A stretch of 61,211 nt of DNA, filler included, from Globobulimina sp. (GCA_003354225.1; 17 parts of 17 records of this genome joined end to end with filler, not necessarily neighbours in it); one strand, 5' to 3'. Shown: positions 1 through 60,757, counted from the first letter of the whole stretch. The notes: generated by a model from the sequence alone, not told the origin. Made by a program: numbers and translations.

Positions 1-8
1 ACGAACGA

Positions 9-10493: not shown

Positions 10494-11035
10494 TCAACGT
10501 CTGCTCCTCAGTACATTTGAATAAATCTAAACTAGATAAATTTACGTTTTTTCGCATGTCAAATTTTTGGATGGTTTTTGTAAAGTTTTAATTATAAAAT
10601 TGTAAAATAGTAAACTGCAGCTGATTAATACCACATACTGCATTATCACCGCCATTATGAATACTCATAATCCATATATATATTCTACAAAATGTTCCTT
10701 AAATTGCCATCTAAAAATAGAATCTAAANNNNNNNNNNNNNNNNNNNNNNNNNNNNNNNNNNNNNNNNNNNNTTAATTAATTAANNNNNNNNNNNNNNNN
10801 NNNNNNNNNNNNNNNNNNNNNNNNNNNNATATTTTAAAGGCTATTGATACGACATTAAGCAAATATCAATTTTGGATGCCTAAGATCAATGGAAGTAAAA
10901 TGTATACGTTTCCCTCAAAATATGATTGTTATGTTCAGAAATTAAAAAATATTTATGTGACGATTTGCAACTATCAAAAAAATAATGTGTAGAGATGGGG
11001 CATGATGACATTTTTATTTTTATCATAATATTTTT

Positions 11036-12655
11036 TTAGTGACATAAACTACAAACACCATTCAAAAACGAATGAACACCTCTTGGGTCAACACAATTAA
11101 TTGTTGTTTGTGGGTAATACTTTGATATTTGCATAAAGAAATTATGGCAATCTTCACACATTCTCATTGAAACTGAAATTGTAATGTCTTGATCATGTCC
11201 AATATCATTATCATTATTACTATGCAATAAAATGGCTAATGCTTTTTTTTCAGAGTGAGATTTTAAATGTCTTTGCCTTGATATATCATCTGGTAATTCT
11301 AAAGCCGATGATCCATCAAACACAAAATCTATTTCTTTCATTAAATATTCGACCAACACAATCGATTTAAACTCATCAAACTTATATCCATTCTCCATTA
11401 TAAATTCATTTCCATTTAAATGAAAACAGGAAATAACGTTTGTTTTTATTGATGATTTATTATTTAATATGTTCCATATTTCTTTCTTCATTTCGTAATC
11501 ATTGCATTTTGAACATATTCTATAAAATCCGATTAAATCCGCAACGTTTAACATTTCTAAATCAATATATCTCCGAATAATTCCATCCAAAATCCGTTGT
11601 TTCAGCACTTCGAATCTATTCTCATTCGATGCCAATACGTTTATTGCGATTATGTCATTTTGCTCATTTCCTTTGATTGAATTATAAAATGTGTACATTT
11701 CATCCAATTTATTGAGATTACCATACGACGATAGCACCTGTCTGAAACACAACGAATTTTCTTCTTTTTTTAATTCATTCAACATTTGTTCATTTTGATT
11801 CAAATCATTCAACAATTTATTACATAAAACAATGGATTGTTTGTGATTTTGTTTATGTTTTGCAAGCACAAAAATAGCCAAACAATAACAATAAATTTCC
11901 GTTTTTATATTCAATTTATTCACCAATAAATTCCAAACATTGCATAAGAATGAATTTGATATTTTATTTCCAGAATGCGAGCAACAAACAATTAGAGATT
12001 GAATGGACCGAGAATCAAATAGTTGTTTTATTGCATTCTCATTCTTATTATGTTTATTTATAACATCATTGTAAATATATTCACCATATTGCGGCGAACC
12101 ACTTTTTATGAAACCTTCCAATAACGAGCTAACAATATATTTTGTCAATTTTATGCCATGTAATGTTAAATTATTATATGCATTCAACAAATCTGTGCTA
12201 TCTCCATACATTCGATGACAATTTATAATAATACAATGTTCCTTTGATGTTAATTCATATCCATTGCTTTGTAGTTCATGCAAATCATTTATCAGATTGT
12301 AAACAAATAATTGATTATTTTTATTCGCATCTCCCTCTCTTATAATTAATGATAATATCAATGAGTATGATGTCAGTGAAGCAATTACGTTCTTTTCTAT
12401 CACCAACTTATTCCATACATGGATAGCCATTACGGCCGCATTATTCTCGGCTGCCTTCTTGCATCTTCTTAATAATGTATTTAATGTGTCGGTGTTGTAT
12501 TGTTGCTCGTTTCCATTGTTTATTTGTTGTGTTATTTCTAGCAAAACATCAGGTATCTTGCCATTAAATTTAATAAGGTTTGTATATGCGTGATAATGAG
12601 TGGTGTATATACATATGTTTCGCATGCACTGTTTCAAGGGCGATTTGACGAGCAT
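11036..12655 (-). CDS. Degenerate PPR-like helical repeat protein with C-terminal DYW-type cytidine deaminase domain
   Basis: FVFDGSSALELPDDISRQRHLKSHSEKKALA...MRMCEDCHNFFMQISK...DPRGVHSFLNGVCSLCH aligns by eye with the DYW consensus (GYVPDT..L.....KE..L..HSEKLA...LRVCxDCH..xKxIS...D..RFHHF..G.CSC). PPR-like units include LTSYSLILSLI and IVSSLLEGFIKSG. The first ATG is at 12655 and the N-terminus is basic with no acidic residues. Confidence 0.9.
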   Translation of the reverse strand: MLVKSPLKQCMRNICIYTTHYHAYTNLIKFNGKIPDVLLEITQQINNGNEQQYNTDTLNTLLRRCKKAAENNAAVMAIHVWNKLVIEKNVIASLTSYSLILSLIIREGDANKNNQLFVYNLINDLHELQSNGYELTSKEHCIIINCHRMYGDSTDLLNAYNNLTLHGIKLTKYIVSSLLEGFIKSGSPQYGEYIYNDVINKHNKNENAIKQLFDSRSIQSLIVCCSHSGNKISNSFLCNVWNLLVNKLNIKTEIYCYCLAIFVLAKHKQNHKQSIVLCNKLLNDLNQNEQMLNELKKEENSLCFRQVLSSYGNLNKLDEMYTFYNSIKGNEQNDIIAINVLASNENRFEVLKQRILDGIIRRYIDLEMLNVADLIGFYRICSKCNDYEMKKEIWNILNNKSSIKTNVISCFHLNGNEFIMENGYKFDEFKSIVLVEYLMKEIDFVFDGSSALELPDDISRQRHLKSHSEKKALAILLHSNNDNDIGHDQDITISVSMRMCEDCHNFFMQISKYYPQTTINCVDPRGVHSFLNGVCSLCH

Positions 12656-12738
12656 TCTGACACAGGTTTTTTGGAAGTTCAAAGGATTGAATCATCGAAA
12701 ACGCTTTTAATTAATATTATAACATACATAGTCAAAAC

Positions 12739-14316
12739 TCAATCATTTGTGTACATGATTTCTGTTTCATTGACAGTTTGATTATAACCATCATTATCTG
12801 TGATTTGCTTAGCTCCATAGCTGAAATATTTAAACCAAATTACAATTATAATAACCACAGCAATCACAAATAAGACAATAAATATAATTGCAATGATCAT
12901 CCACGTATCATCATCCTCTTTATCTTCCTCATCATCACTTGTATCCCTATATCCTGCCACATATTCATCACAAACTGCACTATCTGCACAAATGGCATTC
13001 ATTCCATAAACATATATTATCACATCCTCATATCCTTTGGGTACAACATAATATTCCGAATACACAATGCGCAGTGTCTGAATAAACTCCAATTTGCAGG
13101 ATGCGCAGTGTCTGAATAAATAACATCCAAATAATCCGCATCATACTCTGCCTGAAATAAACCATACCACATTTTCTGTCCCTCATTCCCCACCGCACTG
13201 CAATCATATCCATATTCAATGTTAATGTTTGGAACAATCTCTCTTTTGATCATATTACAAAATGACATATTATACTCTGTAGGTCGACCATCATAAATTA
13301 AATGAAAAAATCCAGAAATAATGATATTACCCATGTACTCATCACGCGATTCAACCACAATTCGATCAATATCCGACATAGAATCCATTGTAATGGGTCT
13401 TTCTGAAAATAAAAATGAATCGTCAGATGGTCCAATTTTATCCATACAATTATCATCATCATCATTCTCTGACTTATCTCTGCAAAATACCATGTTTCCA
13501 GTCGCCACAAATCTGTCATCATCAAAAGCGTCTGTTATTTGCTCAAAATTTGAGAATAATGGAATGTAATCTATTTGTTGATATTGCCAAAAAAATATAT
13601 CCCCAGCACAAATTTCGCCGCATGGCAAATGCAAACTGCCTTTATCTCTGAACGTGGAATTTAAAGTACTTTCGATGGTACTCAATGAAACATGGGATGG
13701 TTCGTCCATTAATGGCACATAGAATCCACTTAATATGCTTTCAAACTGCGTCATATTATCCAAACATCCTTGAATGATGCTTTCGTCGTATCTTCAGGAT
13801 AATTACATTGAGCAATCTTATCATTGTCAAACCACTGTGCTCCTTCAATAAGACTGCAATCACAGAGCGCACTATTATTAGTATCTAGATCTTGAGCATA
13901 AATACATGGTGCCATCATACATGCGGCCCAATTTGAAATGGGACATTCTATCCATTCATCCACAGGAAATGCTCGGGAACAGAATGATTGCCATGAATAT
14001 GTTGACACGATTTCAACTAATTCGTCATTTACATAATATTTATTGTTTAAGATGGCATCACAAATTGGTGCTTGGTCAATGTGGCATGGCGATGCCAAGG
14101 TGCAATTTTGTGAGTTTGTTGTTTGACAGTTTGATTGGTGATGGCTGCTGTGACAATTTGATATTTACTGTCATATATTTTGCACTCACAGGTTGCGTTG
14201 AGATCACAGGTTTCAAATATGCATAAAGCATGAATTCCAAGACACTCAACAATTGTCTGAGGATCAGCGGTGAGGAAATCAACCATAAACAGTGCTAATA
14301 AAGTTAATACTTTCAC
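12739..14316 (-). pseudogene. Cysteine-rich type I membrane protein broken into four frames
   Basis: Signal peptide MKVLTLLALF, Cys-rich ectodomain (ALC...CEC, IVSTYSW, WAACMMAPC...CDC) and a C-terminal TM helix. Frame changes occur near 14100, 13760 and 13070-13120. Confidence 0.6.
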
Positions 14317-14437
14317 ATTAGGGTTTTTGCTTTTAGTNNNNNNNNNNNNNNNNNNNNNNNNNNNNNNNNNNNNNNNNNNNNTTAATTAATTAANNNNNNN
14401 NNNNNNNNNNNNNNNNNNNNNNNNNNNNNNNNNNNNN

Positions 14438-17400
14438 ATCGGAATGTCTCAAACGATGGGCGTAGTTATACCAATCATTAATGGTGTCATTTCTTGTATG
14501 ATGCATTAGCAATCCGTCTGGGACTAAGTTGTGTTGATTTATGCAGTAATTCAATGTGATTTCATTATTATGTATTCGATAAACAGTATTTAGGAACCGA
14601 TGGGATTGGGAGAGGATGGATTTATAGAGGGTATTTTTTGCATGAGATATATCAATATTTACGTGTTTGTACGTGAATTTGAGGTTATCTTCATCAAAGC
14701 AATTGGCACCGCATATTATTGACCATAAAGTGTCACGGTTTGTGCGGACATCGGTGCAAAATTCAATTAGTCGTTGCATGAATATTTGGTTATGGAATGT
14801 GTTTATTTTGGAGCCAATTTTGGCCAAGACTGCCTTGGCATGATTCCAATAAATATGGCGGAGGGTATCTAGGACTGGGCAATGTATACAGAGGTGGACC
14901 TCAATGGGAGTGGGGACATCATTGCCACATAGGAGGCAGTGGTTATGTTTTTGGTTAAAGAAATAAAATAATTCTCGGTATTGGACAATCATTTGTTTAT
15001 TTACAAAATCTGCCAGGTCCTCTACCTCGTATGTGTTCATCGCTTTGTAATCCGGGAGATGGTGTTTGAGCACTCTCAAGGGATGATATTGGTGTAGTGA
15101 GTTGACTATTTGTCGGTGTTGGCGTTTTACAATGATTGGACGTAATTCGGAGGGCCCTAGAACGTCATCAAAGATATCTATGTTTGTGGGGATATTATTG
15201 ACCATTCTGGTTTCATTGGGCAACCACTCTTGTTTTAAAGCAGTATATTGTTTAAAGAGGGTGTAATTGGTGATGTTTGGGAGGGAATTCCATATATGCA
15301 TATATGATATGGGTTTGTTTTTATTTAATTTCCAATAAAAGGCAAGTTTCAGAACAATCCATCTCTCAGAGGGGGACGGAATGCCTGCAAAAATTGAGAA
15401 TTGTTTGAAAATGAAATTTTCAATTTTGGTTTGTTTGCGAATCACTTCAATTTGCTTTTCTAAAGCGGCTACAAGGTTTATGGCGGTGCAGTCTAAAACT
15501 TGGGCAAATATTTCTGTGTAAACCAGATAGAAAGTTTTTAGAATGCGTATTTTGTCCCTTAGTGAGATAAAACTGTGGTTGAAGTCTAATTGCGACAACA
15601 GTCTGGCTTTCTGATCTAATTTGTTTAGGAATACTTTATTGGTGCACTTTGTGGAGACTAAATTGGTGTTATCGTGGGAACAAAGGTGAGCGCCCAGGTA
15701 GCGCAGGAAGGTGACTATTTGGAGGGGGTTGTTGTTCATTTGACAAGAAAAGTGCATTTTGGAGAGTGACCAGCTGTCATCGCGGATCATGTTGTCCCAT
15801 ATTATGTGGAATGGTTTGCCTGAGGTGTCATTTTGGTAGTACTCACAATGTGCTTTAAAGGAGGCTAAGATATCTGGGGGTATTTCACTGAATTGGTAGA
15901 AGCATATAGAACCATCAATGTCGACTGCGGTTATTCGTTTATTGGTGGGGTGTTGGATTAGCACCATTGGCGCTTCTTTGTCGTTGGGATTTTGCAATTT
16001 ATTATGATATTCATTGGTGATGAGTTGTTTTTGCGCGGCACTGTGATGGTGGGTATTATTGGTGAGTATCGATGGGTCATTATATATCATGGCTTTGCAT
16101 TTATTGGCATTGAAGGTGTAGGCCGATGTTGCTCGCAGATTTTTAGGAGGGCCGCGAGGTGTTCTATGGTATTGGCAGTTAGTACAACATCGTCTGCATA
16201 GAAGATGCAGGAAATAAGTGTGTGTATATCGGGGGAGGTGGCCCCTTTTTGAGATGCCTGTAATTCAGATATCATATCATTTATGAATGCTGCAAAGAGA
16301 ATGGGGCTAAGCACAGAGCCTTGCAGCACACCATTATGCAATTCGAAAATATTTGTGATGAACGGGATGTCGCGGATGGCGGAATGTGAGTTGTTGTACA
16401 CTGCTTTTATTATTTTGCATATATTAATGGGGATTTGGAAGTTTTTATGTAGTTTGTAGAGTAAGCCTTTGCGCCAAACGGTGTCAAATGCTTTGCGTAT
16501 ATCCAACGAGGCGCAGTATAATGGTTTATTTTGCAATTTGGCAGTTTCAGCAACAAGGTGCAGTGTTCCAATCTGCTCAGGAACCCCGCGTTTGGCTCTA
16601 TTGCCTCACTGTAGTATGTGTAAGTTTCGCCTGAAATCATGTTTTATATTCATACGCCACAGGACGAGGCGTTCATATGCTTTGAATATTAGGGGCAGTA
16701 ACGTGATGGGGCGGTATTGATTTGGTGTGTCACCATCTGGTGTTTTAAGTATGGATATAACAGATCCCAGACGGCAGTAATACGGGATGACGTAGGTGCA
16801 ATTCCATGTGTTATACATTACGCAAAGTAATTGGCGGACGACATCGCCATTCAGTTTAAGGTGCTGTGATTTTATTCCATCGAAACCTGGGGCGGAACTG
16901 CCGTTGGCGTGTTGTAGGGCCATCTCAACAGAGGAATATTTTACGTAAGGATCCTCGGCTTGGTCTGCATTGGTTTCGTTGTCGGTGTCTGTTTGTTGGC
17001 CTTCTCCTGAAGGGTTGGGCGAGCGCATAGTAACACAAACATTATCGATATCATGGGCATGTATCTGGTCATGTTCTATCTGAAACATCTCATTCATATC
17101 GGTTTCGTGTTTGTTTATGAAGCTTGGATCATAATGCGGCACATTTTCAATAATATCATTGTGCTGCCAATCCTCTCTGGCATTTGTGAACGATTCAAGT
17201 GGTGGGGGAGTGTCGTTTGTGTCCTCTTTGGCAGGTTTGGAAGGAATGAAGATGATGGGATCATGGATGAATGCATTGAGGTTTATATGGAACTGATTGA
17301 TTGGTGTGATGGAATGGTTGGAAATGGGATCAAGGATTGGTCCATTTATATTGGCAAAATGTTCAGATAATGCGCTATTTTTTGGAACGAGGCCGCCTTT

Positions 17401-22381: not shown

Positions 22382-22433
22382 GCACTGAGTCCATGTTGCT
22401 TCGAGTTTTTGTCAATATCTTCAGTTTGAAATC

Positions 22434-23927
22434 ATGTCTCCCGCTCTGCTTCACCCATTCCATTCAACAAAAGAGATATTTAGCAATCTTAAGCCACAAC
22501 AGAAATACGGTATTGTTGCAATTGGAGGTAATGTGATTTATTACGTACGCCGTTACATTCATTATAAAATATACATCATTACAGTGTGTGCAGTGTCAAT
22601 AATCACTGGTTCGTATTATTGGTCTCTCCAAAAGCAAAAAGCATGGAAAAAATTACAAAAACCTATATTAGCAAAATATTGGAGCGATTCATACAACGAA
22701 GCAAGAAACAAATTTCGTGAGTCATGTGCAAAAATACCAAACTGTAAAACTCATTCCATTCGTGAGCATCCAATGGAAGATTTAACAATGGATCTTTGTT
22801 ATGTTCCATGCATTAAAAAAAGCAAACAAAAACCATCACATTTGGTGATTCATATCAGTGGAACGCATGGCGTTGAAAGTTATGCGGGTGCAGCCATTCA
22901 AAATAAATTACTTCAAAATATAGCAAACAGTAACTCAGAAAGCAGAGATTATGACATATTATTCATTCATTCATTGAATGCATTCGGAATGTGCCATAGT
23001 CGACGATTTAACCGATATAATGTAGATTTAAATCGTAATACAATATTAAATAAACACAAATGGAGGGAAATAAAGCGACGCGACCCTAATTTACATGGTT
23101 ATGACTCAATATCATATTTAATTAATCCAGAATATAAAACTAAATATCCATGGCCTGATATAGCAATTTGGTGGGGAATCATGAAAATATTGTTGAGATT
23201 TGGTAACAGAGATAACGCCGAAAATGCTATTGTTTGTGGACAATACCACCAAGCCACAGGTTTGTATTACGGTGGATTTCGACTGCAAAATGAGCAGAAA
23301 AAATTATTTAATTTTCTGGTCAATGAATGTAAAACAATTTGGAATGTTGATTTGTTGGGTTTGTTGGAGGGAAAAAATAGTAAATTGACTGTAATTGATG
23401 TTCATACTGGTGTTGGACCGAAAGGAGTTGACTCGCTATTTGCTGGAAATAAAGCAGACATTGAGAAAGCTAAACAAGTGCAAGGCTTTCCTGCGGAATA
23501 TCTGAATGATAAACAGAGACTGCGGAGTGGAGAGAAAGGTCGCCAGCGGACTGAGCGGAGAGATGTTTCTGTTGGATCAGTTGGTAGAGTTAATGTTGGA
23601 ATTACTAAATTGTTTAAAAATGTGGATAGATTTATGGATGATGGATATGAGAGTGATAGGGATTGTGATAAAGAGTTGGATGAGATGTTGGATTGTATTA
23701 CATTGACGGAAGAATTTGGTACTGTGTCACCACTGTTTGTTATTCATGCGTTGATAATGGAGAATGCAATTTATAATTTGCAATTAATGGATGCTGATTG
23801 TAAAAATGTGTTGAAATTTAGACAAGAAAAATTGCGGAATGTGTTTTTTTTGCACGATGATCTACAATGGAAATATGATGTGTTGAGAAGGGGTGTTGCA
23901 TTATTCAATTGTTTGTCAAACAGATAA
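22434..23927 (+). CDS. DUF2817 / M14 zinc-carboxypeptidase-like protein with N-terminal TM; in-frame intron 22528-22584
   Basis: ISGTHGVE, HSLNAFG, NVDLNRN, IDVHTGVG and EFGT motifs. Confidence 0.85.
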   Translation: MSPALLHPFHSTKEIFSNLKPQQKYGIVAIGGNVIYYVRRYIHYKIYIITVCAVSIITGSYYWSLQKQKAWKKLQKPILAKYWSDSYNEARNKFRESCAKIPNCKTHSIREHPMEDLTMDLCYVPCIKKSKQKPSHLVIHISGTHGVESYAGAAIQNKLLQNIANSNSESRDYDILFIHSLNAFGMCHSRRFNRYNVDLNRNTILNKHKWREIKRRDPNLHGYDSISYLINPEYKTKYPWPDIAIWWGIMKILLRFGNRDNAENAIVCGQYHQATGLYYGGFRLQNEQKKLFNFLVNECKTIWNVDLLGLLEGKNSKLTVIDVHTGVGPKGVDSLFAGNKADIEKAKQVQGFPAEYLNDKQRLRSGEKGRQRTERRDVSVGSVGRVNVGITKLFKNVDRFMDDGYESDRDCDKELDEMLDCITLTEEFGTVSPLFVIHALIMENAIYNLQLMDADCKNVLKFRQEKLRNVFFLHDDLQWKYDVLRRGVALFNCLSNR

Positions 23928-39707: not shown

Positions 39708-41372
39708 CCAATAAGACAGCTGTGGGAAAATCCGCCGAATATTCAAGAACATTTCAATATTAATCTATTCCGAGATTACTTAAGTGATCACCCAAACGGT
39801 GAAATCGAGATTAATCTTATAAAGGATGGATATCCACTTTTTTTGAAGGATAGAGATCCATCTAAATTATCTAAACACGTTTCAAACATTGTCAGGAATA
39901 AGAGAGACTTACATGCAATTTTAAAACGAATGGTAAAGGAAGCAAAGAAAGCATATATAACACAAACACGTACACAATTACATTATAATTTAAATCTTTT
40001 ATGTGTACCAAAACGTAACAACGATACTAATCAATTGACAGAGATACGAGTAGCGAGACATGGTTCTTTTGCTACTCGTACAACAATTTCAGTCAACGAT
40101 TTAATAAACAAGAAAGATTGCAAAATGCCTACACTTCCAAATATTCGTAAATACATTGAACTACTCATAAAATATGATTATGTGTCTCTTAGAGACCTAA
40201 AAGATGCCTTCCGTCAATTAAATTTAGCCTCAGCTGATTCTGAATATATTCAATACTCCATTTTTGGTCTAACTTTTCGAGATCTACGCCAAGCATACGG
40301 TGTTGCATCGGCTGCAGCAAATTGCCAGTACTTTGCACAAATTTTAATTTGGATCCTCCAAAATAAATATCTTCAGTCAACGCAGATTGACCAAATCTTA
40401 GTACATATTGATGATTTTATTCTAGCTGGTCATAATAAACAGGAAGCTTTACTTTTAGCGAATAAATTTGATAAAATGTGTGATGATTTGAATATAAATG
40501 TTTCCCATGTAAAGGATGAAAATGCTATTTGTGATGGCATTGTACATGGTTTTGGTTTCAATTTACAGTCAAAATATGTATATATTCCTAAGCATAAAGG
40601 ATTAAGATTAATAATAAAATATAGATATGCGACAGGACGAGCGCTGGAATCTGTGTGTGGTAAAATTATGCATTGGTCACAGTTTAGAAAACCAGCAAAA
40701 GTGCTCTGTTACAGATTATTACGTTTAATACATAAAAAAATTCGCGCAAATCCAAAATTAAAAAATAAAATATTTTGGGTACCTGATGCTATAATAACAG
40801 ACTTAACATTTTGGCTACAATACGCAGCTTACATGCGTAAGGTGACCATGTATTCAATTATAAATCAACCGGAAATAACAATTACCGGAGCGACAGATGC
40901 CAGTATGATTGGAGGTGGATTTGTAGTGGGAAGTTATTTTGGTGCATACAAATTCATTGACAAACAAAATTTATACGGCATAAATCATAGGAGAATGTCC
41001 ATAAATTATCAGGAAGCGCATGCAATTATTATGATATTGCATAATTATCGCCATCTCCTCACTGGGCGACAACTTTTATTGTACATTGACAACACATCGG
41101 TTTTATTCAGCATTTATAAACATTGGGCCGGAAGTGAACAATTAATGGAATACATCCATGAAATTGTCCTTTTAATGTGTATCTATTCGATTGGTTTGCG
41201 AGTTGAGTTCATTCCATCATCTTTTAATGATTTGGCAGATTCACTATCGAGATTTGATTGGAATCGTTTCTATGAAACCATTGACTTATATAATCTCAAA
41301 ATGAATGATCAACAAACAACACTTGAATATTATCCAACGTTGAAATTACTTCGTAAATATGACTTAGATTAA
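39708..41372 (+). CDS. Reverse transcriptase plus RNase H (DIRS type)
   Basis: The frame is open from ~39708 (LSDHPN...KDGYP). RT motifs are DLKDAFRQL, YGVASA and HIDDF. RNase H motifs are TDAS, INYQEAHAI, YIDNTSV and NDLADSLSR. Confidence 0.92.
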   Translation, partial: PIRQLWENPPNIQEHFNINLFRDYLSDHPNGEIEINLIKDGYPLFLKDRDPSKLSKHVSNIVRNKRDLHAILKRMVKEAKKAYITQTRTQLHYNLNLLCVPKRNNDTNQLTEIRVARHGSFATRTTISVNDLINKKDCKMPTLPNIRKYIELLIKYDYVSLRDLKDAFRQLNLASADSEYIQYSIFGLTFRDLRQAYGVASAAANCQYFAQILIWILQNKYLQSTQIDQILVHIDDFILAGHNKQEALLLANKFDKMCDDLNINVSHVKDENAICDGIVHGFGFNLQSKYVYIPKHKGLRLIIKYRYATGRALESVCGKIMHWSQFRKPAKVLCYRLLRLIHKKIRANPKLKNKIFWVPDAIITDLTFWLQYAAYMRKVTMYSIINQPEITITGATDASMIGGGFVVGSYFGAYKFIDKQNLYGINHRRMSINYQEAHAIIMILHNYRHLLTGRQLLLYIDNTSVLFSIYKHWAGSEQLMEYIHEIVLLMCIYSIGLRVEFIPSSFNDLADSLSRFDWNRFYETIDLYNLKMNDQQTTLEYYPTLKLLRKYDLD

Positions 41373-43393: not shown

Positions 43394-43882
43394 TCATTCG
43401 CATGCACAATTGTAATGTTCTGCTAAGCGCCCATACACCAGCACAGCAACAACAGCGCGAACAAGCATGTACATTACCAAGTTTGCAATGTTCAAGTTGG
43501 ACCAAACATGAATTTTGACATGCAAATTACCAGGTTCATCCAACATGTTGTTAATTGATAATTGCACTGCAGTTACTACCACTGTCAGGAGCGCAATGAC
43601 TGCAATCTGTCCAGTGATACGATGATTTCGCGCATTGAATATTTTTGATATTTGCAACCAGGATGTGACGGACCAAACAGCAGTTGCAAGGATATGGATG
43701 GTGAGAGGGGATATGTCAGGCGTTTTGTTGTACCAGGTCCACGTGGAAGTCTTCCAGAATTGACCCGATGTTGAATTCGAAAAGAGATAGATTGTTAATG
43801 TCAAGAAAATAATTTCACCGATACCAACAAATTGTGCGACCTCTAGTGCTGCTTTGCGAGAGGACATTTTCTTTTTATTCAT
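43394..43882 (-). CDS. DUF2306-like membrane protein, 3' end frameshifted or partial
   Basis: HILATAVW..SWLQI...HRITGQIAV pattern and several TM helices. Confidence 0.55.
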   Translation of the reverse strand: MNKKKMSSRKAALEVAQFVGIGEIIFLTLTIYLFSNSTSGQFWKTSTWTWYNKTPDISPLTIHILATAVWSVTSWLQISKIFNARNHRITGQIAVIALLTVVVTAVQLSINNMLDEPGNLHVKIHVWSNLNIANLVMYMLVRAVVAVLVYGRLAEHYNCACE

Positions 43883-44160
43883 TTGTGTCTTTTTCTGTTT
43901 ATTTTAAATTGTTTTGTGTCGAAAAGAGGTTAATTAATTCGGCGAAACGTTCTATAATTATACATCGAGTATGAATAGTGTGTGTTTAGGAGTGTGTGAC
44001 TGACATTAGCTAGTGTCAATCAGAAAAACAATGAGAAAAATAAAAATTTAATTATTGGTGACATTGATATTTTAAATATCACAAAAATTGACCATTGCAG
44101 TCTCATCTTCTGTGATACAAATCAACATTATTTTGTTTCCTTAAATCAGATCACTCCAAA

Positions 44161-46213: not shown

Positions 46214-47318
46214 TGCACTAAGTCAGACAAGGAACAGACGCCCTTCGTTTGCAATTGAGTAATCATTGCAATGCATAGCTTTTGTTTGAGTGTCTCTGTC
46301 TCTGTCTCGTGTGTGTCTTCGCTGCCTTTTTTGCTCTTTTGTTTGGGGACATATAAAAAGTGCAAAGATTGGACCCATTTCTGCAAATCATTTCTGTGTT
46401 TACTGCGCTCCCAATCGTGAATGGATCGACGTTTATGTCTGTTCAGTGCGTGTGTATGTGTGTGTGCAAGGATGGAACAAATGCATTTTTGTTTAATTTT
46501 GAGAGTGTCAGACCTGACTGCTGTTTCGATTTGGATTTAATTGTTTGTTTTCTTATTTCCATTTTTGCGTGACTGCTTTTTCGACATTGATTGGACAATT
46601 GATTTGAGACTCTGATTTGTGTGTTTGTTTGTTTCGACAATGACCAATTCGAAGTTGAGTCACAACAAAACATACAAGAAAAAACTCAAACACAATGGCA
46701 ATAAAAGAACAAAAAAACTGAAAGTCATGGGCCAAACCTGCTGCTCAACAGAGGCACAAAAATCAAAACAACCAACAGAGGATGTCTGTTTTTGTNNNNN
46801 NNNNNNNNNNNNNNNNNNNNNNNNNNNNNNNNNNNNNNNTTAATTAATTAANNNNNNNNNNNNNNNNNNNNNNNNNNNNNNNNNNNNNNNNNNNNTGGCA
46901 GCAAATAATAATCACAGCCACTTTAATCATAATGTGGTGCCTCCACCGATTGCAAGTAATAATTACCATAATAATGATAATGACCATATGTACTGCGGAT
47001 GTATGGACAATTCAATTAATACTAACATTACAAATGCAAACATTGAGTGTGGTATTGATGATATTAATGATATTCATGAATCACCAATGAATTCTTCAAT
47101 TTTTACAAGCAGCACAGTGCGTACTTATAAATTGTAAAACTAAGAGATATATGTTGTGCATAGCACAGTCTATCTTTTATATATTTATTTTATTGTATAT
47201 TTATTTTATCAATGCATTGTATTGCTAAATTAGTAAATTTTGGTTATTAGTTTCATTTCAGATTTGCTCTCACAAACACATTATTGCTATCCTTGCACGT
47301 ACACAAACAGAAACGTTA

Positions 47319-48314
47319 TTGTCCGCGAACAAGAGTCAACCGATTGATAAATGGGGTTTTGAAGTTATTAGTAGTGTTGAAAACTTTTATATGATGTCAA
47401 CTCAAACGCGTTTTTCCAGATTGTCAGTTGGCAGCAGATTGTCAGCTATATTTAAACCCAAAACAAACACATGGAAATGTCCAATGTGCAACAATGAAAA
47501 TGACTTATTGGAGATAAATCAAAAAGGAGATAAAACCTGTCTTAACTGTGATTTCCCAGTTCCACCATCGCCGCATCATTCAATTTCAACCTCAAAACTT
47601 ACCAAATTACTGCGCAGAGAGAAACGCACTAATTATTCAGCTGTTGATCACAAACAAAATGAGTCCTTTCCATTTGCACAGCCAATTACAATGAATCTTA
47701 ATAACAATAATGATAATTCATTGAATATATTGCATATTAAATGGAACCAAAATATAATGCATATTAAATCATTAAATCATAATCAATTTTTATATATCAT
47801 TTATGTGATAATCGATAAAATGAATCAAGACATACAATCGAGAAAAAAAGAAAACAAACTGTTTCTAAATAAACAAGGAATTTTAACTTATTTTGATAAT
47901 ATTGTTATTGACGGAATTTCATTTCAATACATTCCAAAATCACAATTTATAAACAATATAATGGATATTATACTTATTAATACATCACATAATATATCAT
48001 TGTATCGAACTGGTTATAAATATGCTGATTATTTATACGAAAACATAAAAACGTTTGATTTGAGTTCAATAAAAATAACAAATACACAAATATCATTTGA
48101 GACACAATATAAATACTTTAACCCCAAAATAAAAAATAAATTGTCGTCCATTATTATCACAATTAATCAATTTAATAATACTCAATATTTAGAAAATAAA
48201 ACAGATGAAATTATAAAGCAATTAAATGAATGTAATGATAAAATATCGGATATATTGAGGTATTATAATATGTACAAAAAAAACCTATTTTATCAAATAA
48301 TATTTGTTACATAA
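47319..48314 (+). CDS. Eukaryotic protein with RanBP2-like zinc finger, 3' end disrupted
   Basis: TWKCPMCNNEN...CLNC. A probable intron at 48306-48390 leads to a further exon that runs into the bacterial segment. Confidence 0.65.
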   Translation: MSANKSQPIDKWGFEVISSVENFYMMSTQTRFSRLSVGSRLSAIFKPKTNTWKCPMCNNENDLLEINQKGDKTCLNCDFPVPPSPHHSISTSKLTKLLRREKRTNYSAVDHKQNESFPFAQPITMNLNNNNDNSLNILHIKWNQNIMHIKSLNHNQFLYIIYVIIDKMNQDIQSRKKENKLFLNKQGILTYFDNIVIDGISFQYIPKSQFINNIMDIILINTSHNISLYRTGYKYADYLYENIKTFDLSSIKITNTQISFETQYKYFNPKIKNKLSSIIITINQFNNTQYLENKTDEIIKQLNECNDKISDILRYYNMYKKNLFYQIIFVT

Positions 48315-48564
48315 GATAGGGTCTTTGTACATGTTATCTTGAGAAGTGTTTCCAAAATCGGCATTCTAAAAAAAAAACTTTGTTACTTAGGTAACAGCAA
48401 CAGTCGACATGTTCGCATCATTTTTTACTACGAACAAAGTTTCAATAATTTGGCTCAACAGATCCATACAATTCGTTGAACGCCAAATTATCGAAAGTTT
48501 GTAACTGCTAAGCAACGAATTAAATATTGACCTTAAAAATAAATTATGTTCATGGAAATACAGC

Positions 48565-49332
48565 ATCCAAACCATAGAAGAATTTTACAACCAATCGGTA
48601 TTTGACAGAATGAATAAACAGTTTGTTCTGAACGCTTTCGGTAAAGAGTTATATGAGCATTCTTTGAAACTGTTAAATATTTATGATCAGATCTGTGATC
48701 TGGACCCAGAATCAAAAATGCCTTCTGGGAAACTACGTATAGGAGCGCCTGAGTCCACCATCCAATATCGTCTATACTCCGTCCTAAAAAAATATAAAGA
48801 ACTATATCCTGATGTTTCTCTGATCATAAAAAATGCAGCCAGCAAGGAGCTGCGGCGTGCTCTCATTGACGGCACATTAGATGTTGCTCTATTGCTGGAA
48901 CAAGAAAATTCTATTTTAGATACCCATATAGAAAAATTAATTGAAGAGCCTATGAGTGTCGTCATACCTGTGGACTACCCGGGAAACAAGTTAATCCCTA
49001 ATCATGGTTACACTCTGCTTTATACTGAGAAGGGTTGCAATTACCGAACAATTTTCGAGCATTTACTTTCATCTCAAGGTATTGAAACGGATAACATTAT
49101 AGAAACAACCAATGTAGAAGTAATAAAACAATATGTCTGTTGTGGCATGGGGATATCCTTTCTACCAACAATTACAATCAAAAAAGAAGTAGAAGCCGGT
49201 CAATTACGCATTTTCCCATGGAATGATAAAAAACCCGTGAATTTACAAATAGCCCATCATAAAAACAAATGGTTATCACCTGCTATCCGAGAATTTATTA
49301 GGTTGACAAAAGAAGATTCTGAACAATGGTAA
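48565..49332 (+). pseudogene. Bacterial LysR-family regulator lacking most of its N-terminal HTH
   Basis: IQTIEE...VFDRMNK..LNAFGKELY, GKLRIGAPES, YPDVSL, LDVALL, GCNYR, EVIKQYVCCGMGISFLP and HKNKWLSPA. Confidence 0.88.
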
Positions 49333-52895: not shown

Positions 52896-53121
52896 AATGT
52901 AGAGGTATTTTTTGCTTTACTTTGCTTTGTTTTATTTCTTGTACTCTGACTAGTCACTAGTGTAGATAGCTGCTAACGAGTTTAGTAGTTTAGATGCAAA
53001 TGCGGTGAATTAAAAGTATTAATAGGTGAATTATGTGATTATATCAGTATTAATTATGTGATTATATAGTAGGTGGCCGGAGCTTCTACTAAGTACTCTT
53101 AATTGCTTGTTGTTTTTCAAA

Positions 53122-53815
53122 ATGTGGAGAAACATGCTTCCACGTCCACTGATAGTATATAGCGGTTTAGTTGGAGCATTTATTTTGCCGCATGGACCAT
53201 CGTTGGTGGATAAAGAAATATCATCACAAAATAGAGATATTAAGAAAGTGATACAGTCCATGCATACTGCAGCTGATATCATTCAAAATGAGTTAAAACC
53301 AGATATAATATTATTGACTACACCGCATGGTATTAAATCCAGTGAGCATCATTCTATTTATTTGAATAAAACTGCATCAGGCACTGCGGAGTGGTATAAC
53401 AAATACAAAGACGTAGAAATTGATATTGCAATAAATATTAAAAAATCGGAAAATCTTTTAAATTGGATCAAATCATCACATTTGTTATCAGATGGCATTG
53501 GTGGAATTGGTGCATTTTATCCGGGATACCCATTGCCTTTAAAATGGGGAGAGGTCATACCTTTATATTTCATTAAGCAGTATTTATCAAATACTAACTG
53601 TCAATGTATTATATTATCAACAAGAGATTATATGAAAGAAAGCGAATTGAGTTCAATGAATCAAATAAATTGTGATCAAAAAGACAGAAAAGATTGTAAT
53701 GAATTGAGATTGTTAGGTGAAAATATATTAAATTGGATCGAGAATATTGATGAAAAAGTAGTTGTCATAGTGTCAGGGGATGGTGCTCATTCACATAAAT
53801 GTCAACAGGAACAAC
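53122..53815 (+). CDS. LigB/MEMO-like (class III extradiol dioxygenase fold) protein, 3'-truncated
   Basis: FILPHG, PDIILLTTPHG, LKWGEVIPL and VVIVSGDGAHSH motifs. It ends at the junction with duplicated sequence. Confidence 0.75.
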
Positions 53816-53958
53816 CATCCACCTTTCATGCATAAATCATGTGGTGGTGTGTGTTCACAATTTGCCTTACACCAACCATCATTTAATGATGGTTGTGTTG
53901 CTCTCCAAGTACAAGGAGTGGTAAAGAAGCAGTTGTTGGTGATGCAGTTGTTGGTGGA
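53816..53958 (+). repeat. Near-exact copy of 52582-52695 plus PTTAS-repeat piece
   Basis: Identical apart from a 1-nt deletion, followed by gcagttgttggtgatgcagttgttggtgga. Confidence 0.95.
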
Positions 53959-56426: not shown

Positions 56427-57608
56427 ATGAACAATGCTGTCAGGAAAAGACGATCCCACTTATTAGTAAGTGGATTTGTTAGAAAAAGTAGCACTCCATA
56501 CATTCATTCTGATATTATTAGTATCATTCATGCATTCCATTATTATATTTTGTTGCTATTATATTCTATTGGTGACAATGGATATGGACAACAAGGTAAT
56601 GGAGGAAATGGAGACCTTGGAAAAATAACAAAAATAAAAACATTTAAAAAAGAAATAAAAAATATTGTTACTGGTGGTGATGCTGGTTATGGTGCAGCAG
56701 CATATATTTTATTTGATGATGGAACATATGAATGTTGCGGTAATAATAAAAAGGGTGTATTAGGTGTTGGCCATTATAATAATATTAATATATGGCATCA
56801 AGTAAAAGATATGAAAATTAAAAATATATTTGTAACACCAAATGGATCATCTCATTCATTTTGTATTTCAAATGAGAATAAATTATATGCGGTCGGAAGG
56901 AATAATACTAATCAATTTGGTATAAAGACAGATGAACTAAATAATAATAAATGGATACCAATTAATACTTCATTATCGATTAAAAAAATAGCACCAACAG
57001 TGCGATATACAACATTTTTAAGTTCAAATGGTAAAATATATGTTGCTGGTTATGATAATGGTTGTGGTGGTTTAGGATTAGGTAAAGATATTTTCTCATC
57101 ACCAAATATTCAACAAATTCAAATAAAAATAAAATTTAAGGATATATCTTGTGGAGGTTTTCATACCTTAGCACTTGATGACAATTATGGTGTTTGGTCG
57201 TGGGGATATGGTGGTTTAGGCAGATTGGGTCACGGAGATGCCAGTACTAGATATTCACCAACAAGAATACAATATTTTATTCAAAACAATATTAAAATTG
57301 CTAAAATATGTTGTGGTGAAGCACATAATCTATTATTATCATTGAATAAAAAAGTTTTGATCTTTTTGTGTTTTTTATACACAAATATATTTTAATAAAT
57401 AAATAAGGTATATTGTTTTGGAGGGAATTATTATTATCAATGTGGAAATGGTTCAACTGAAACTGTATATTTACCACAACCAAATGAAACATTAAAAAAA
57501 GAAACAAGTATTGATTTAAAATGCGGCGGAGATCATAATATTATTAAAACAGCGGATAACAAATATTATTTATGGGGATATAACAATTATAATCAATGTT
57601 TATATGTT
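56427..57608 (+). CDS. RCC1/BLIP-II repeat protein, 3'-partial, intron ~57352-57407
   Basis: GDNGYGQQG, GRNNTNQFG, ISCGGFHTLAL...VWSWGYGGLGRLGHG and ICCGEAHNL. Confidence 0.92.
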
Positions 57609-57708: not shown

Positions 57709-59485
57709 AGACATTGTTAATATTAATTCCATTATGAATGTTTGTGTCGAGAATAATGATTCAAACAAAGCTTTAGCAATTTATGATGAATATTTTCCAT
57801 TTATGGACAGAGATAATATCACAAATATGTTGGCCTTGAAAGCTTGTGCAAATATTGCAAATTTAAAGAAAGGAATGCAAATTATCAATGAAAATAATTT
57901 GGTAAATAATAATAATTGCATTGCAATACAAAACACATTAATTCATTTTTATGGCGAATGTTTTCAAATCAATGAAGCGGAGAAAATATTTAATTACATT
58001 TCAAATAATAAACATAAAAATATTGTATCCATCAATGCCATGATGACCGCTTACATTAAAAATGCGTATTTTAGTGCGGCATTACAGTTATATGATGATA
58101 ATATGTTTCAAGTGGATGCAATCTCTGATTTGCTAGCATTGAAAGCCTGTATAAATAATGAGAATTATTGTAAAGGCAAAGAGATTATAAATAATGGCAA
58201 TAATAATAAGAATAATAATAGTCCGCAAATGAAAAGTACATTAATAGATTTTTTTGGCCATTTTAATGAGATTGGAAATGCACAAAATATATTTAATAAG
58301 ACAGCAAAAGAGAAGCAATCCATTGTTAATATTAATTCGTTGATGAATGGCTATATTCGCAATAAGATGGATGGAGATGCATTACATTTATATGATGGCT
58401 TAAAAGAGGAAAAGAAGGATTGGACCACGTTTATGTTTGCCATGAAAGCCTGTATAAATACATCAGATATTAAGAAAGGAAAAGAAATCTATTCATCGAT
58501 ACCCATTCATAATTTGAATGATATTTGCTTGATTTCGACGTTAATCCAGTTTTATGGGAATATTGTATTTGATATCGAAACTGCCAAATATTTGTATGAT
58601 TTGATTGCAACTAAAAACAAAGAGAAATTGAATATAATTATTATCACTGCGATGATGAATGCGTATATCGGATGCAATTCAAATGAAGAATGTATTCAAT
58701 TATTCCAGCAAATACAAACAGAAAATAGGTCAATCAAAGCAGATATTATTTGTTATTGTTTGTTATTGACTGCTTGCGCCAACTCAACAAATTATTATTT
58801 TGGTAAAGACATTCATGACAAATTCAAAAGAAAGAAAGAATTGAATTGGATGTTGAATGAAGTTGAAATCCAAACCAATTTGATAAACTTGTATGGGAAA
58901 TGTGGAATGATTGATTTTTGTGAGGAAATATTTGAGAATGCGAGTCCAGCAAACAAAGAAAACATAGATTTGTGGAATTCAATGATTCATTGTTTTGGAA
59001 GGAATGGTTTTATTCATAAAGCATTTGGATTATTTAATGAAATGAATGAAAAGAAGATAATTGTAAATGAGAAAACATTTGGCATTTTATTGAGTGTTTG
59101 TAGTCATTGCGGGAATGATGAGATTGCGCGGGATTTATATTTGAATAAAATAACAGATATTGAGATTAGATATGATTTATATGTCATGAGTGCATTTATT
59201 GACTGTATCTCAAGGAAGGGATTTCTAAACGAAGCATATCAATATATCTTCCAATATAATAAATATAAAACAAAAGATAATAATAATAATAATAATATGG
59301 ATGATGATGAGGTGGTGATAATGTATACGTCGTTGTTAAGTGCCTGCAAAAAACATAAGAATCTCTTAATTGCTCAATATGTCTATAATGAAATGATAAA
59401 AAAGTTTAAAAATAATTCAAAATATATGACATCTGCATCGGTCATACTTCAAAATATCTATAATGAGAAAATAAATAATGTTTGA
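57709..59485 (+). CDS. PLS-class-like pentatricopeptide repeat protein ending in E-like motifs, 5'-partial
   Basis: Recurring triplets (LxACxN / TLIxFYG / INxMMxAY), then NLINLYGKCG, WNSMIHCFGRNG, TFGILLSVCSHCG, AFIDCISRKGFLNEAY, YTSLLSACKKH and VILQNIY, followed by a stop. Confidence 0.92.
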
Positions 59486-59527
59486 CGTACAATAAAGTTG
59501 AATTAATGTGTCATGTCCGATCCTAAA

Positions 59528-60757
59528 TTATCTAAACGGATCTATTATTATCAAAGTCTCATTATGCAAACAAATGACCTTTTCAATAAAATATTGCGCG
59601 CCGAGTTCTTTTCTTTTATCAAATAATCGTGGTTGCCATACATTATCCGCCTGCGTTGTCGTACTGCATTGTTTAAATCCGTTATATCCCCAAAAATATA
59701 AATTATTATTCTCTGATAATATCATTGAATGGTCACCACCGCATGAAATATCTTTTATTTTCTCATCAATCCGTATTAAATATGCTTCATTCTTTCCTAT
59801 TTGCGGATTTTTCACAGCCATAAACTGCTTATTGTCCACCCCCATAAACCCTCTCTGTCCGCAATCATTTCCATTACCAACGGTATATACACAACCATCA
59901 CAATCTAAAAATAAAGCATGACTCGCACCACATTTTGTGTTAATTATCTTTGTATTCTCATGTAAAATTACTCTCAAATCACCATAACATTTGCCAACAC
60001 TTTCAACTGTTACTAACGATGTAAACCAATCAGCACAACACACCATTTTAATGTCATAATCAAGTAACATGGGCACAATAATATTCTCTCGATTTGTATC
60101 AACAACACATTGGCCATATTCATTATTGCCACAACCATAAATTATATTATTTGATGAAACAAATATTGTATGTTTTGAACCACATTGAATATCAATTAAA
60201 TTATCTTTTTCATTCAACCATTTACTTGTATTCATTTCATTAAATAATATGGGATTTGGACCATTTACATACAATTTATTATCAAAACTTGTCATAAATG
60301 CTTGAAATGCATTACAAATACCTTTCGAAATGATATTAATATTATTTTTATCTGTAATTTGTGTCCATTGTGAATATTTTCCCCATCCCGCTACAAATAT
60401 TTTATTGTTTGATTTTATAATTAGTGCACAATCGTTGCTATAAATGTCTTGAATATTATTTACTAATGTTTCCAAGGCATACAATCGTTGAAATGTATGA
60501 AGTGAATCTCGATGATTTAAACCAAACTGACCGTAGGCATTCCTGCCACTTGCAAATATTATTCTTTTCTCAATATAGTTCATAATAATACATCGAATAT
60601 CGAGAGGAATAACTTTTTTTGATATCTCTTCATGTTCACGAAAATAACCATTCAAAACTATCACAGTTATTCTTGGCATTTTAAAACATGCTTGGCATTT
60701 TATTGCATTTACAGAATTAAACAATTGACAATTTTCGCATTTCCAAGAGTTTGCCAT
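59528..60757 (-). CDS. RanBP2-type zinc finger plus RCC1-repeat protein
   Basis: WKCENCQLFN....KCQAC, then GRNAYGQFG, IQCGSKHT, GNNEYGQC and ISCGGDHS. Confidence 0.9.
   Translation of the reverse strand: MANSWKCENCQLFNSVNAIKCQACFKMPRITVIVLNGYFREHEEISKKVIPLDIRCIIMNYIEKRIIFASGRNAYGQFGLNHRDSLHTFQRLYALETLVNNIQDIYSNDCALIIKSNNKIFVAGWGKYSQWTQITDKNNINIISKGICNAFQAFMTSFDNKLYVNGPNPILFNEMNTSKWLNEKDNLIDIQCGSKHTIFVSSNNIIYGCGNNEYGQCVVDTNRENIIVPMLLDYDIKMVCCADWFTSLVTVESVGKCYGDLRVILHENTKIINTKCGASHALFLDCDGCVYTVGNGNDCGQRGFMGVDNKQFMAVKNPQIGKNEAYLIRIDEKIKDISCGGDHSMILSENNNLYFWGYNGFKQCSTTTQADNVWQPRLFDKRKELGAQYFIEKVICLHNETLIIIDPFR

Follow-up and report, generated by a model that had tools for sequence, protein, structure and literature searches.

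A plant-like PLS-class PPR protein without a deaminase and a separate DYW protein in a Globobulimina assembly

Does a plant-like pentatricopeptide repeat (PPR) protein that carries no deaminase act as the specificity half of a split RNA-editing system in a protist? This question is raised by a gene near the end of a 61,211-base stretch of DNA (the window) from the Globobulimina sp. assembly GCA_003354225.1. In Arabidopsis, PPR proteins of the E type recruit DYW deaminases in trans (PMC9522420, PMC7076377), and the first-pass annotation of the window had proposed that this PPR protein and a DYW protein encoded elsewhere in it may be the two halves of such a system. The window consists of 17 separate contigs of 3503-3510 bases each, ordered by size and joined by spacers (44 N, TTAATTAATTAA and 44 N), and the adjacency of its contigs is meaningless. 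The PPR gene is located on the last contig (57709-61211, 28.8% G+C) and the DYW protein gene on the fourth (10829-14337, 31.9% G+C), on different contigs as the annotation had stated. Among the open reading frames (ORFs) of at least 40 aa across the whole window, one PLS gene and one DYW gene only were identified. The observation is genuine and far exceeds what chance would give, the PPR protein being a new, lineage-specific form of a protein type already known; its interpretation as a partner in trans is a reasonable hypothesis that was partly strengthened by the analysis.

Repeat array and C-terminal end of the PPR protein

The window PPR protein belongs to the PPR repeat proteins (PF01535 and PF13041), with Pfam scores of 93.9 bits for PPR (cut-off 25) and 97.4 bits for PPR_2 (cut-off 30), both above the cut-off. 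Only PPR models were found by the Pfam scan; E_motif, E+ and DYW (PF14432) gave no match even at E<=10. The AlphaFold2 model, with a predicted local distance difference test score (pLDDT) of 90.9, consists of 16 helix pairs and one single terminal helix (residues 570-590), and the pLDDT is low at residues 526-530; the S2 motif contains an Asn/Asp-rich insert. The motifs are arranged in five P-L-S triplets, the last being the P2-L2-S2 variant (Table 1), as in the PLS subclass. The triplets described in the first-pass annotation are thus present, but a strict long-short alternation is not: the motif lengths are 32-37 aa for P, 34-39 aa for L and 33-37 aa for S, and the S motifs are not short as in the plant pattern of P 35, L 35-36 and S 31-32 aa that Cheng et al. 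reportedly gave in 2016. The residue pairs at position 5 and the last position are ND, ND, ND, TD and NN for the P motifs and NN, SS, SN and TN for the S motifs, all of them combinations used in the plant PPR code; read by that code, the known part of the array would recognise U-n-Y-U-n-n-U-n-A-G-n-A-Y.

The plant-like character of the C-terminal part was examined using a hidden Markov model (HMM) of the plant C-terminal module, made from 21 plant-type hits and covering the E motif and the 125 residues ahead of it (188 positions). Residues 416-586 were aligned to HMM positions 7-159 of 188 with 84.1 bits (independent E-value 2e-26), and the inner triplets matched the P-L-S part of the HMM only, with the lower scores listed in Table 1. 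On this score the repeats are not those of a plain P-class protein, an outcome considered beforehand. Pfam E_motif was detected in 16 of the 17 plant-named matches of the window PPR protein, indicating that these matches are of the PLS class. A Cryptomeria PLS-DYW protein, with its Pfam E motif at 480-542 and DYW at 578-671, could be aligned collinearly by BLASTP, starting at residue 43 and reaching the NIY of E2 (25% identity over 550 columns, E 9e-41). The best sequence match in PDB is the synthetic PPR-DYW chain 9kfx_A, of which the best-matching stretch, residues 305-400, was read by eye from the letters as its terminal P2-L2-S2 triplet.

For the E-like character of the tail to be seen, the longer HMM of the plant module or a profile-profile comparison was needed. 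The plant E-only HMM gave a weak score on the window PPR protein (5.8 bits, independent E-value 0.036). In the comparison by hhalign, the last 57 columns of the family alignment matched plant E1+E2 with a probability of 98.1% (E 1.2e-13, score 63.9) over family columns 1-54, whereas seven control segments of the family, 57 residues each, scored 36.3 or less. The protein ends at about position 164 of the 188 of the plant HMM, about 24 positions short of the end of the plant E motif, so that E2 is represented by helix A alone. The plant-like P2-L2-S2-E1-E2 run proposed in the first-pass annotation was therefore recovered except for the second helix of E2, and the stop lies inside E2, not right where E+ or DYW would begin. 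It is nearly certain that the part in the window consists of four P-L-S triplets followed by P2-L2-S2, E1 and helix A of E2, without DYW; Pfam, the plant module HMM and hhalign together support a probable PLS-E type lacking DYW.

Table 1. Features of the PPR and DYW genes and the adjoining gene, in window coordinates
Feature	Position	Strand	Basis
PLS-class PPR gene, last 591 codons and stop	57710..59485	+	open frame, Pfam, homologues, AlphaFold2
Four P-L-S triplets, residues 2-418	57713..58963	+	motif table; plant module HMM 32, 21, 17 bits
P2-L2-S2 variant triplet, residues 419-534	58964..59311	+	plant module HMM, PDB sequence match
E1 motif, residues 535-569	59312..59416	+	hhalign; helices 536-548 and 552-566 (AlphaFold2)
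E2 first helix only, residues 570-591, then TGA 59483-59485	59417..59482	+	single helix 570-590 (AlphaFold2)
PPR-DYW protein, 548 codons from TTG	11036..12682	-	Pfam DYW, AlphaFold2, Foldseek, homologues
Beta-hairpin (PG-box position) and DYW deaminase domain, residues 417-548	11039..11434	-	AlphaFold2, Foldseek
Convergent RCC1-repeat gene	59528..60757	-	Pfam; best relatives with foraminifer accessions

The reading frame (57710-59482) contains no stop and is open from where the contig begins; the residues encoded there already belong to a P-type repeat. Since the frame is open at the contig start, the gene is cut at its 5' end, and position 57709, from which the first-pass span had been counted, is the contig edge and not the start of the gene; the other end of that span, the stop at 59485, was retained. 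The closest relatives are 795-989 aa in length and cover 99% of the 591 residues, which implies that about 200-300 residues are absent from the window PPR protein.

The stop codon had been named beforehand as a possible error. It is present in run X1, which may be the source sample (record 4, 59335-59486, 0 differences), and in a contig of run X2 from an independent study (record 12, 59438-59630), which continues into the RCC1 gene; contigs of two studies thus agree that the stop is genuine. At the opposite end of the gene, an X1 contig extends 736 bases past the contig edge. The sole variant near it is a 4-nt deletion at 59486-59489, directly behind the stop codon, found in the only X2 contig spanning the site and in a minor X1 contig. 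The end of the convergent RCC1 gene (59528) is 43 nt from the stop, leaving no room for a DYW domain after it.

Two RCC1-repeat genes are located within 7 kb, at 56427-57395 (+) and 59528-60757 (-). The depth of run X2 over the latter is 110-289, compared with 2.5-15.5 over the adjoining PPR gene, which could be due to RNA-derived reads or to a large number of almost identical copies. In one run, tentatively taken as RNA, a diverged copy of the RCC1 gene is all that is present.

The family, its shared end point and its host

A total of 56 homologues of the window PPR protein were found by protein search, the best being 46% identical (795 aa). Among them, 33 are non-plant relatives with 28-47% identity from metagenome assemblies, Logan and EukProt; the remainder are one rotifer protein and plant or plant-like proteins. 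When the end points were projected on the plant HMM for the 25 sequences with a complete C-terminal module, the window PPR protein included and eight fragments left out, 22 ended at positions 144-172 of 188, inside E2. The missing deaminase is thus a trait of the family, and the conserved truncation argues for an end that was probably selected rather than accidental.

The three exceptions are P0004, P0008 and P0026. P0004 (906 aa) is the only family member with DYW directly behind E2, in the plant-like arrangement, and reading by eye from the letters indicated loss of its zinc-binding His and CxxC; it looks like a catalytically dead relic. Its E2-DYW arrangement implies that the family descends from DYW-bearing proteins and has abandoned catalysis in cis. 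In P0008, E2 is longer and is followed by a tail, and P0026 (730 aa) has an extra C-terminal tail that by eye resembles a C2H2-type zinc finger.

The degenerate DYW domain of P0004 indicates that decay occurs in this family, and the gene model in the window is incomplete at its 5' end; the window gene might then be a decaying or accidentally truncated PLS-DYW copy without function. This explanation is highly improbable in view of an open frame of 591 codons in a contig of 29% G+C, the pLDDT of 90.9, a stop found in contigs of two studies and an end point shared by 22 of 25 members with 28-47% identity.

With respect to the host, the EukProt relatives of the window PPR protein are listed under accessions of Nonionella stella (seven proteins) and Bolivina argentea (one), and the best matches of the RCC1 gene at 59528-60757 are from Bolivina argentea (55% identity, 100% coverage) and Nonionella stella (47%). 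As both neighbours have relatives under foraminifer accessions, the host should be a foraminifer-like protist, from which the gene apparently comes as judged by these matches. The first 30 residues of all 16 full-length relatives examined are basic (2-9 K/R, 0-2 D/E), as would suit a mitochondrial presequence.

We also considered whether the contig might be a contaminant derived from a plant, bdelloid rotifer or heterolobosean amoeba, because PLS-type PPR proteins are known in rotifers, Naegleria, Acrasis and Physarum (PMC13386178, PMC4202320, PMC4758236), and because the nearest large cluster of the window PPR protein in the protein atlas consists of rotifer PPR fragments (Rotifera, score 0.97). 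This source is very unlikely, since the best named relatives of the PPR protein and its RCC1 neighbour are both under foraminifer accessions. The Rotifera lead was given up because the sequence searches returned a single rotifer match (E 1.6e-11, 50% coverage), a plant origin because the plant matches are only 20-26% identical and the relatives of the RCC1 neighbour are foraminiferal, and a Naegleria origin on the identity levels and, again, the relatives of the RCC1 gene.

The DYW protein and its link to the PLS family

The DYW protein on the fourth contig had been placed at 11036-12655. Position 12655 is the first ATG (539 aa), but the ORF extends to a TTG at 12682. Its identification as a DYW deaminase holds: Pfam DYW_deaminase (PF14432) scored 38.4 bits (cut-off 24), and the residues H476, E478, C509 and C512, which form the HxE(x)nCxxC signature of the DYW family, show no variation in any of the 17 aligned homologues (20-49% identity). 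In the AlphaFold2 model (pLDDT 77.7), the first 43 residues are disordered, about 22 helices (residues 45-408) form about 10-11 hairpins ahead of the deaminase, and the strands 417-422 and 425-430 form a beta-hairpin followed by the deaminase fold. The best PDB match by Foldseek is 9kfx, a synthetic PPR-DYW protein with RNA (E 7.8e-13), and the DYW domain of OTP86 (7o4e) was aligned with a TM score of 0.71. The invariant HxE and CxxC together with the matching fold imply that a working deaminase has been kept in this lineage, and the window DYW protein is a predicted intact PPR-DYW deaminase.

The full scan by HMMER with a four-sequence profile of the DYW protein returned 1476 representatives at E<=1e-3, of which 49 reached E<=1e-30. 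In the Pfam scan of the top relatives (n=24), DYW was detected in 24 and PPR in 20. Three stand-alone paralogues are listed under the Nonionella accession (P0057, P0078 and P0089). According to the structure model, the protein, a member of a small PPR-DYW family, has about 10-11 degenerate repeats and is thus more than an almost bare deaminase; its predicted PPR tract is not clearly reduced as in the DYW donors that act in trans. The few-repeat donor expected in the first-pass annotation was not found in this protein, and the proposal that both halves of a split system may exist in this genome stands only as the co-occurrence, in one assembly, of a PLS-E protein lacking DYW and an intact DYW protein.

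The two kinds of protein are linked by fusions. Under the Nonionella accession, P0080 (1139 aa) and P0083 (1128 aa) carry a PLS array and a DYW module in one chain. The window PPR protein is matched by P0080 over its residues 5-524 (29% identity, E 4e-66) and by P0083 over its residues 1-465 (31%, E 1e-63), and the window DYW protein by P0080 over its residues 90-547 (34%, E 1e-69) and by P0083 over its residues 183-547 (31%, E 6e-46). Further long proteins with PPR and a DYW module are P0077 and P0081, both on metagenome contigs, and P0100. As a Rosetta-stone argument, these chains suggest that such a PLS array and the deaminase module may serve one task; they give no sign of docking of the E1/half-E2 tail to the DYW module. 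Three architectures are thus found side by side under the Nonionella accession: PLS-E (P0005, P0006, P0014, P0017 and P0018), stand-alone DYW and fused forms (P0080 and P0083).

The tetranucleotide correlation between the PPR contig and the DYW contig is 0.96, the highest for each within the window; for pieces of 3.5 kb, this agrees with a shared origin but supports it only weakly. Binning of the two contigs to different organisms, considered beforehand, is not indicated by this value, and both genes have relatives under the same foraminifer accession.

Other contigs of the window carry genes of different kinds. A LysR-type regulator (LysR_substrate, 1.2e-40) was found on the contig at 46896-50400, with ORFs at 47229-48311 and 48505-49329, both on the + strand; LysR being a bacterial kind of gene, it was either acquired by transfer or lies on a contig of bacterial origin within the assembly. 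ORFs of retroelement type (zinc knuckle, reverse transcriptase) are located at 3-2390 (+), 16090-16605 (-) and 39708-41369 (+), the first two on the two contigs richest in G+C (about 41%). DUF2817, a LigB-type dioxygenase and DUF2306, families mainly known from bacteria, are encoded on AT-rich contigs at 22389-23924 (+), 53062-53832 (+) and 43397-43903 (-), respectively.

Editing in trans, other roles and known systems

The mechanism favoured here would be as follows. The ORF in the window would be the larger 3' part of a nuclear PLS-class PPR gene of a foraminifer-like protist, of which the repeat array would read a short single-stranded organellar RNA, most likely mitochondrial, with one base per repeat. 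The PPR protein, bound at its RNA target, would be a site-specificity factor without catalysis of its own, because in the absence of a deaminase it can only mark a site, and the conversion of a nearby C to U would be carried out by a separate, intact PPR-DYW protein such as the one encoded at 11036-12682. By analogy with the E-type PPR proteins that work with MEF8, DYW2 or DYW1 in seed plants, the whole mechanism, with a PLS-E specificity factor and a separate PPR-DYW deaminase, is put forward tentatively, as possible rather than probable. What we infer is that the protein binds RNA and is located in mitochondria, that the two proteins are partners, and that this organism edits C to U at all.

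Several observations weigh against this mechanism. In the fused forms, the plant module HMM is matched only through P2 and a part of L2 and is followed by the DYW module, with S2-E1-E2 absent, so that the E1/half-E2 tail is an alternative ending and not a broken-off neighbour of the DYW module. No significant E motif was detected by the plant E-motif HMM before the DYW domain of the stand-alone and fused proteins, and an E2-like stretch noted there by eye was dropped for this reason. The DYW protein could locate targets by itself: with its own 10-11 or so repeats, PPR in 20 of 24 relatives and several paralogues, it could be self-sufficient, and the multi-gene DYW family under the Nonionella accession also fits self-sufficient PPR-DYW factors. 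The shared origin of the two contigs is drawn only from composition and shared relatives, in a fragmented assembly that also contains at least one bacterial-type contig, and field-collected foraminifer transcriptomes may include other organisms. The plant helpers MORF, NUWA and GRP23 are not known here, although no search was aimed at them. Finally, C-to-U editing was unreported in any rhizarian before 2025 according to the available text of PMC11946409.

A role independent of DYW is a serious possibility that likewise falls short of probable: the window PPR protein may be an organellar RNA-binding factor that stabilises, processes or helps to translate mitochondrial transcripts, with the E1/half-E2 tail merely capping the solenoid and the DYW proteins acting alone. 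The available text of PMC10127745 describes fragmented rRNA genes and a split nad1 in foraminiferal mitochondrial genomes, as well as a conserved cox1 frameshift in miliolids, and reports no C-to-U editing in them; this silence also counts against the trans-editing mechanism. Genes fragmented in this way would need many RNA-specific factors. A role of this kind also agrees with the PPR tract and the several paralogues of the DYW family, with the fused forms that lack E1-E2, and with Acrasis and Naegleria, in which DYW-type PPR proteins far outnumber editing sites and other roles were proposed (PMC4202320). The tail, however, is specifically E-like, scoring far above the control segments in the hhalign comparison, and is kept in 22 of the 25 members, and the Rosetta-stone fusions tie such a PLS array to a deaminase. 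In addition, plant PLS proteins bearing E motifs are overwhelmingly editing factors.

A wider form of the trans-editing mechanism appears doubtful at present, namely that foraminifera, or a co-sampled protist lineage, evolved a split editing machine independently of seed plants, in which the PLS family would have shed its deaminase inside E2 and would work with stand-alone PPR-DYW deaminases. The pairing of DYW-less PLS-E proteins with deaminases encoded apart from them has usually been presented as an elaboration of organellar editing made by seed plants. In the present case, proteins truncated in E, deaminases on their own and fusions of both kinds coexist in a second lineage, and if the split is true, it would be a natural replicate of specificity and catalysis coming apart. 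It would also mean that the highly divergent mitochondria of foraminifera edit C to U, which is so far unreported, or at the least rely heavily on PPR proteins to handle their RNA, and it would lengthen the list of lineages with plant-like PLS genes. If, on the other hand, the family works without a deaminase, it would show a use of the PLS array and E1 cap outside editing. The literature searched on foraminifera with pentatricopeptide and on DYW with Rhizaria yielded no description of a foraminiferal PPR or DYW family.

Among known systems, the seed-plant E subgroup (E-type proteins paired with MEF8/MEF8S, E+ proteins paired with DYW2, and CRR4 paired with DYW1) has a P-L-S array that likewise ends in P2-L2-S2 and, where the window PPR protein has its E-like tail, E motifs, without a deaminase, and in plants the catalysis is provided by a separate DYW protein (PMC9522420, PMC7076377). 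The window PPR protein differs from this subgroup in that it ends after the first helix of E2 instead of a full E2 or E+, gives no Pfam E_motif score, has S motifs of 33-37 aa, and occurs in a non-plant host, with only 20-26% identity to plant proteins. The DYW protein shares with the atypical short plant PPR-DYW proteins (MEF8 and DYW2) and the diplonemid PPR-DYW protein a degenerate tract followed by DYW with an intact HxE...CxxC. The PPR tract of the plant MEF8/DYW2 type consists of about five repeats, whereas the window DYW protein has about 10-11 helical hairpins and belongs to a family that is multi-copy under one foraminifer accession and is also fused behind PLS arrays. For diplonemids, it has been suggested that one PPR-DYW protein works together with separate PPR proteins that provide the specificity (PMC12699882).

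Among Rhizaria, in which 31 DYW domains were counted and foraminifera may be included (PMC13386178), the paradinids show C-to-U and A-to-I mitochondrial editing with 1-3 PPR-DYW proteins (PMC11946409). Plant-like PLS or LS arrays are likewise found in the PLS/DYW PPR proteins of Naegleria, Acrasis, Physarum, bdelloid rotifers and paradinids, which are thought to have been transferred horizontally and expanded in each lineage (PMC4202320, PMC4758236, PMC13386178, PMC11946409); Adineta vaga, for instance, has 191 PPR genes, including 60 DYW as well as the P subgroup and, as subgroups lacking DYW, E+ and PLS (PMC13386178). These earlier reports on non-plant organisms centre on DYW-bearing proteins, whereas in the family described here 22 of the 25 members lack DYW and end at one truncation point.

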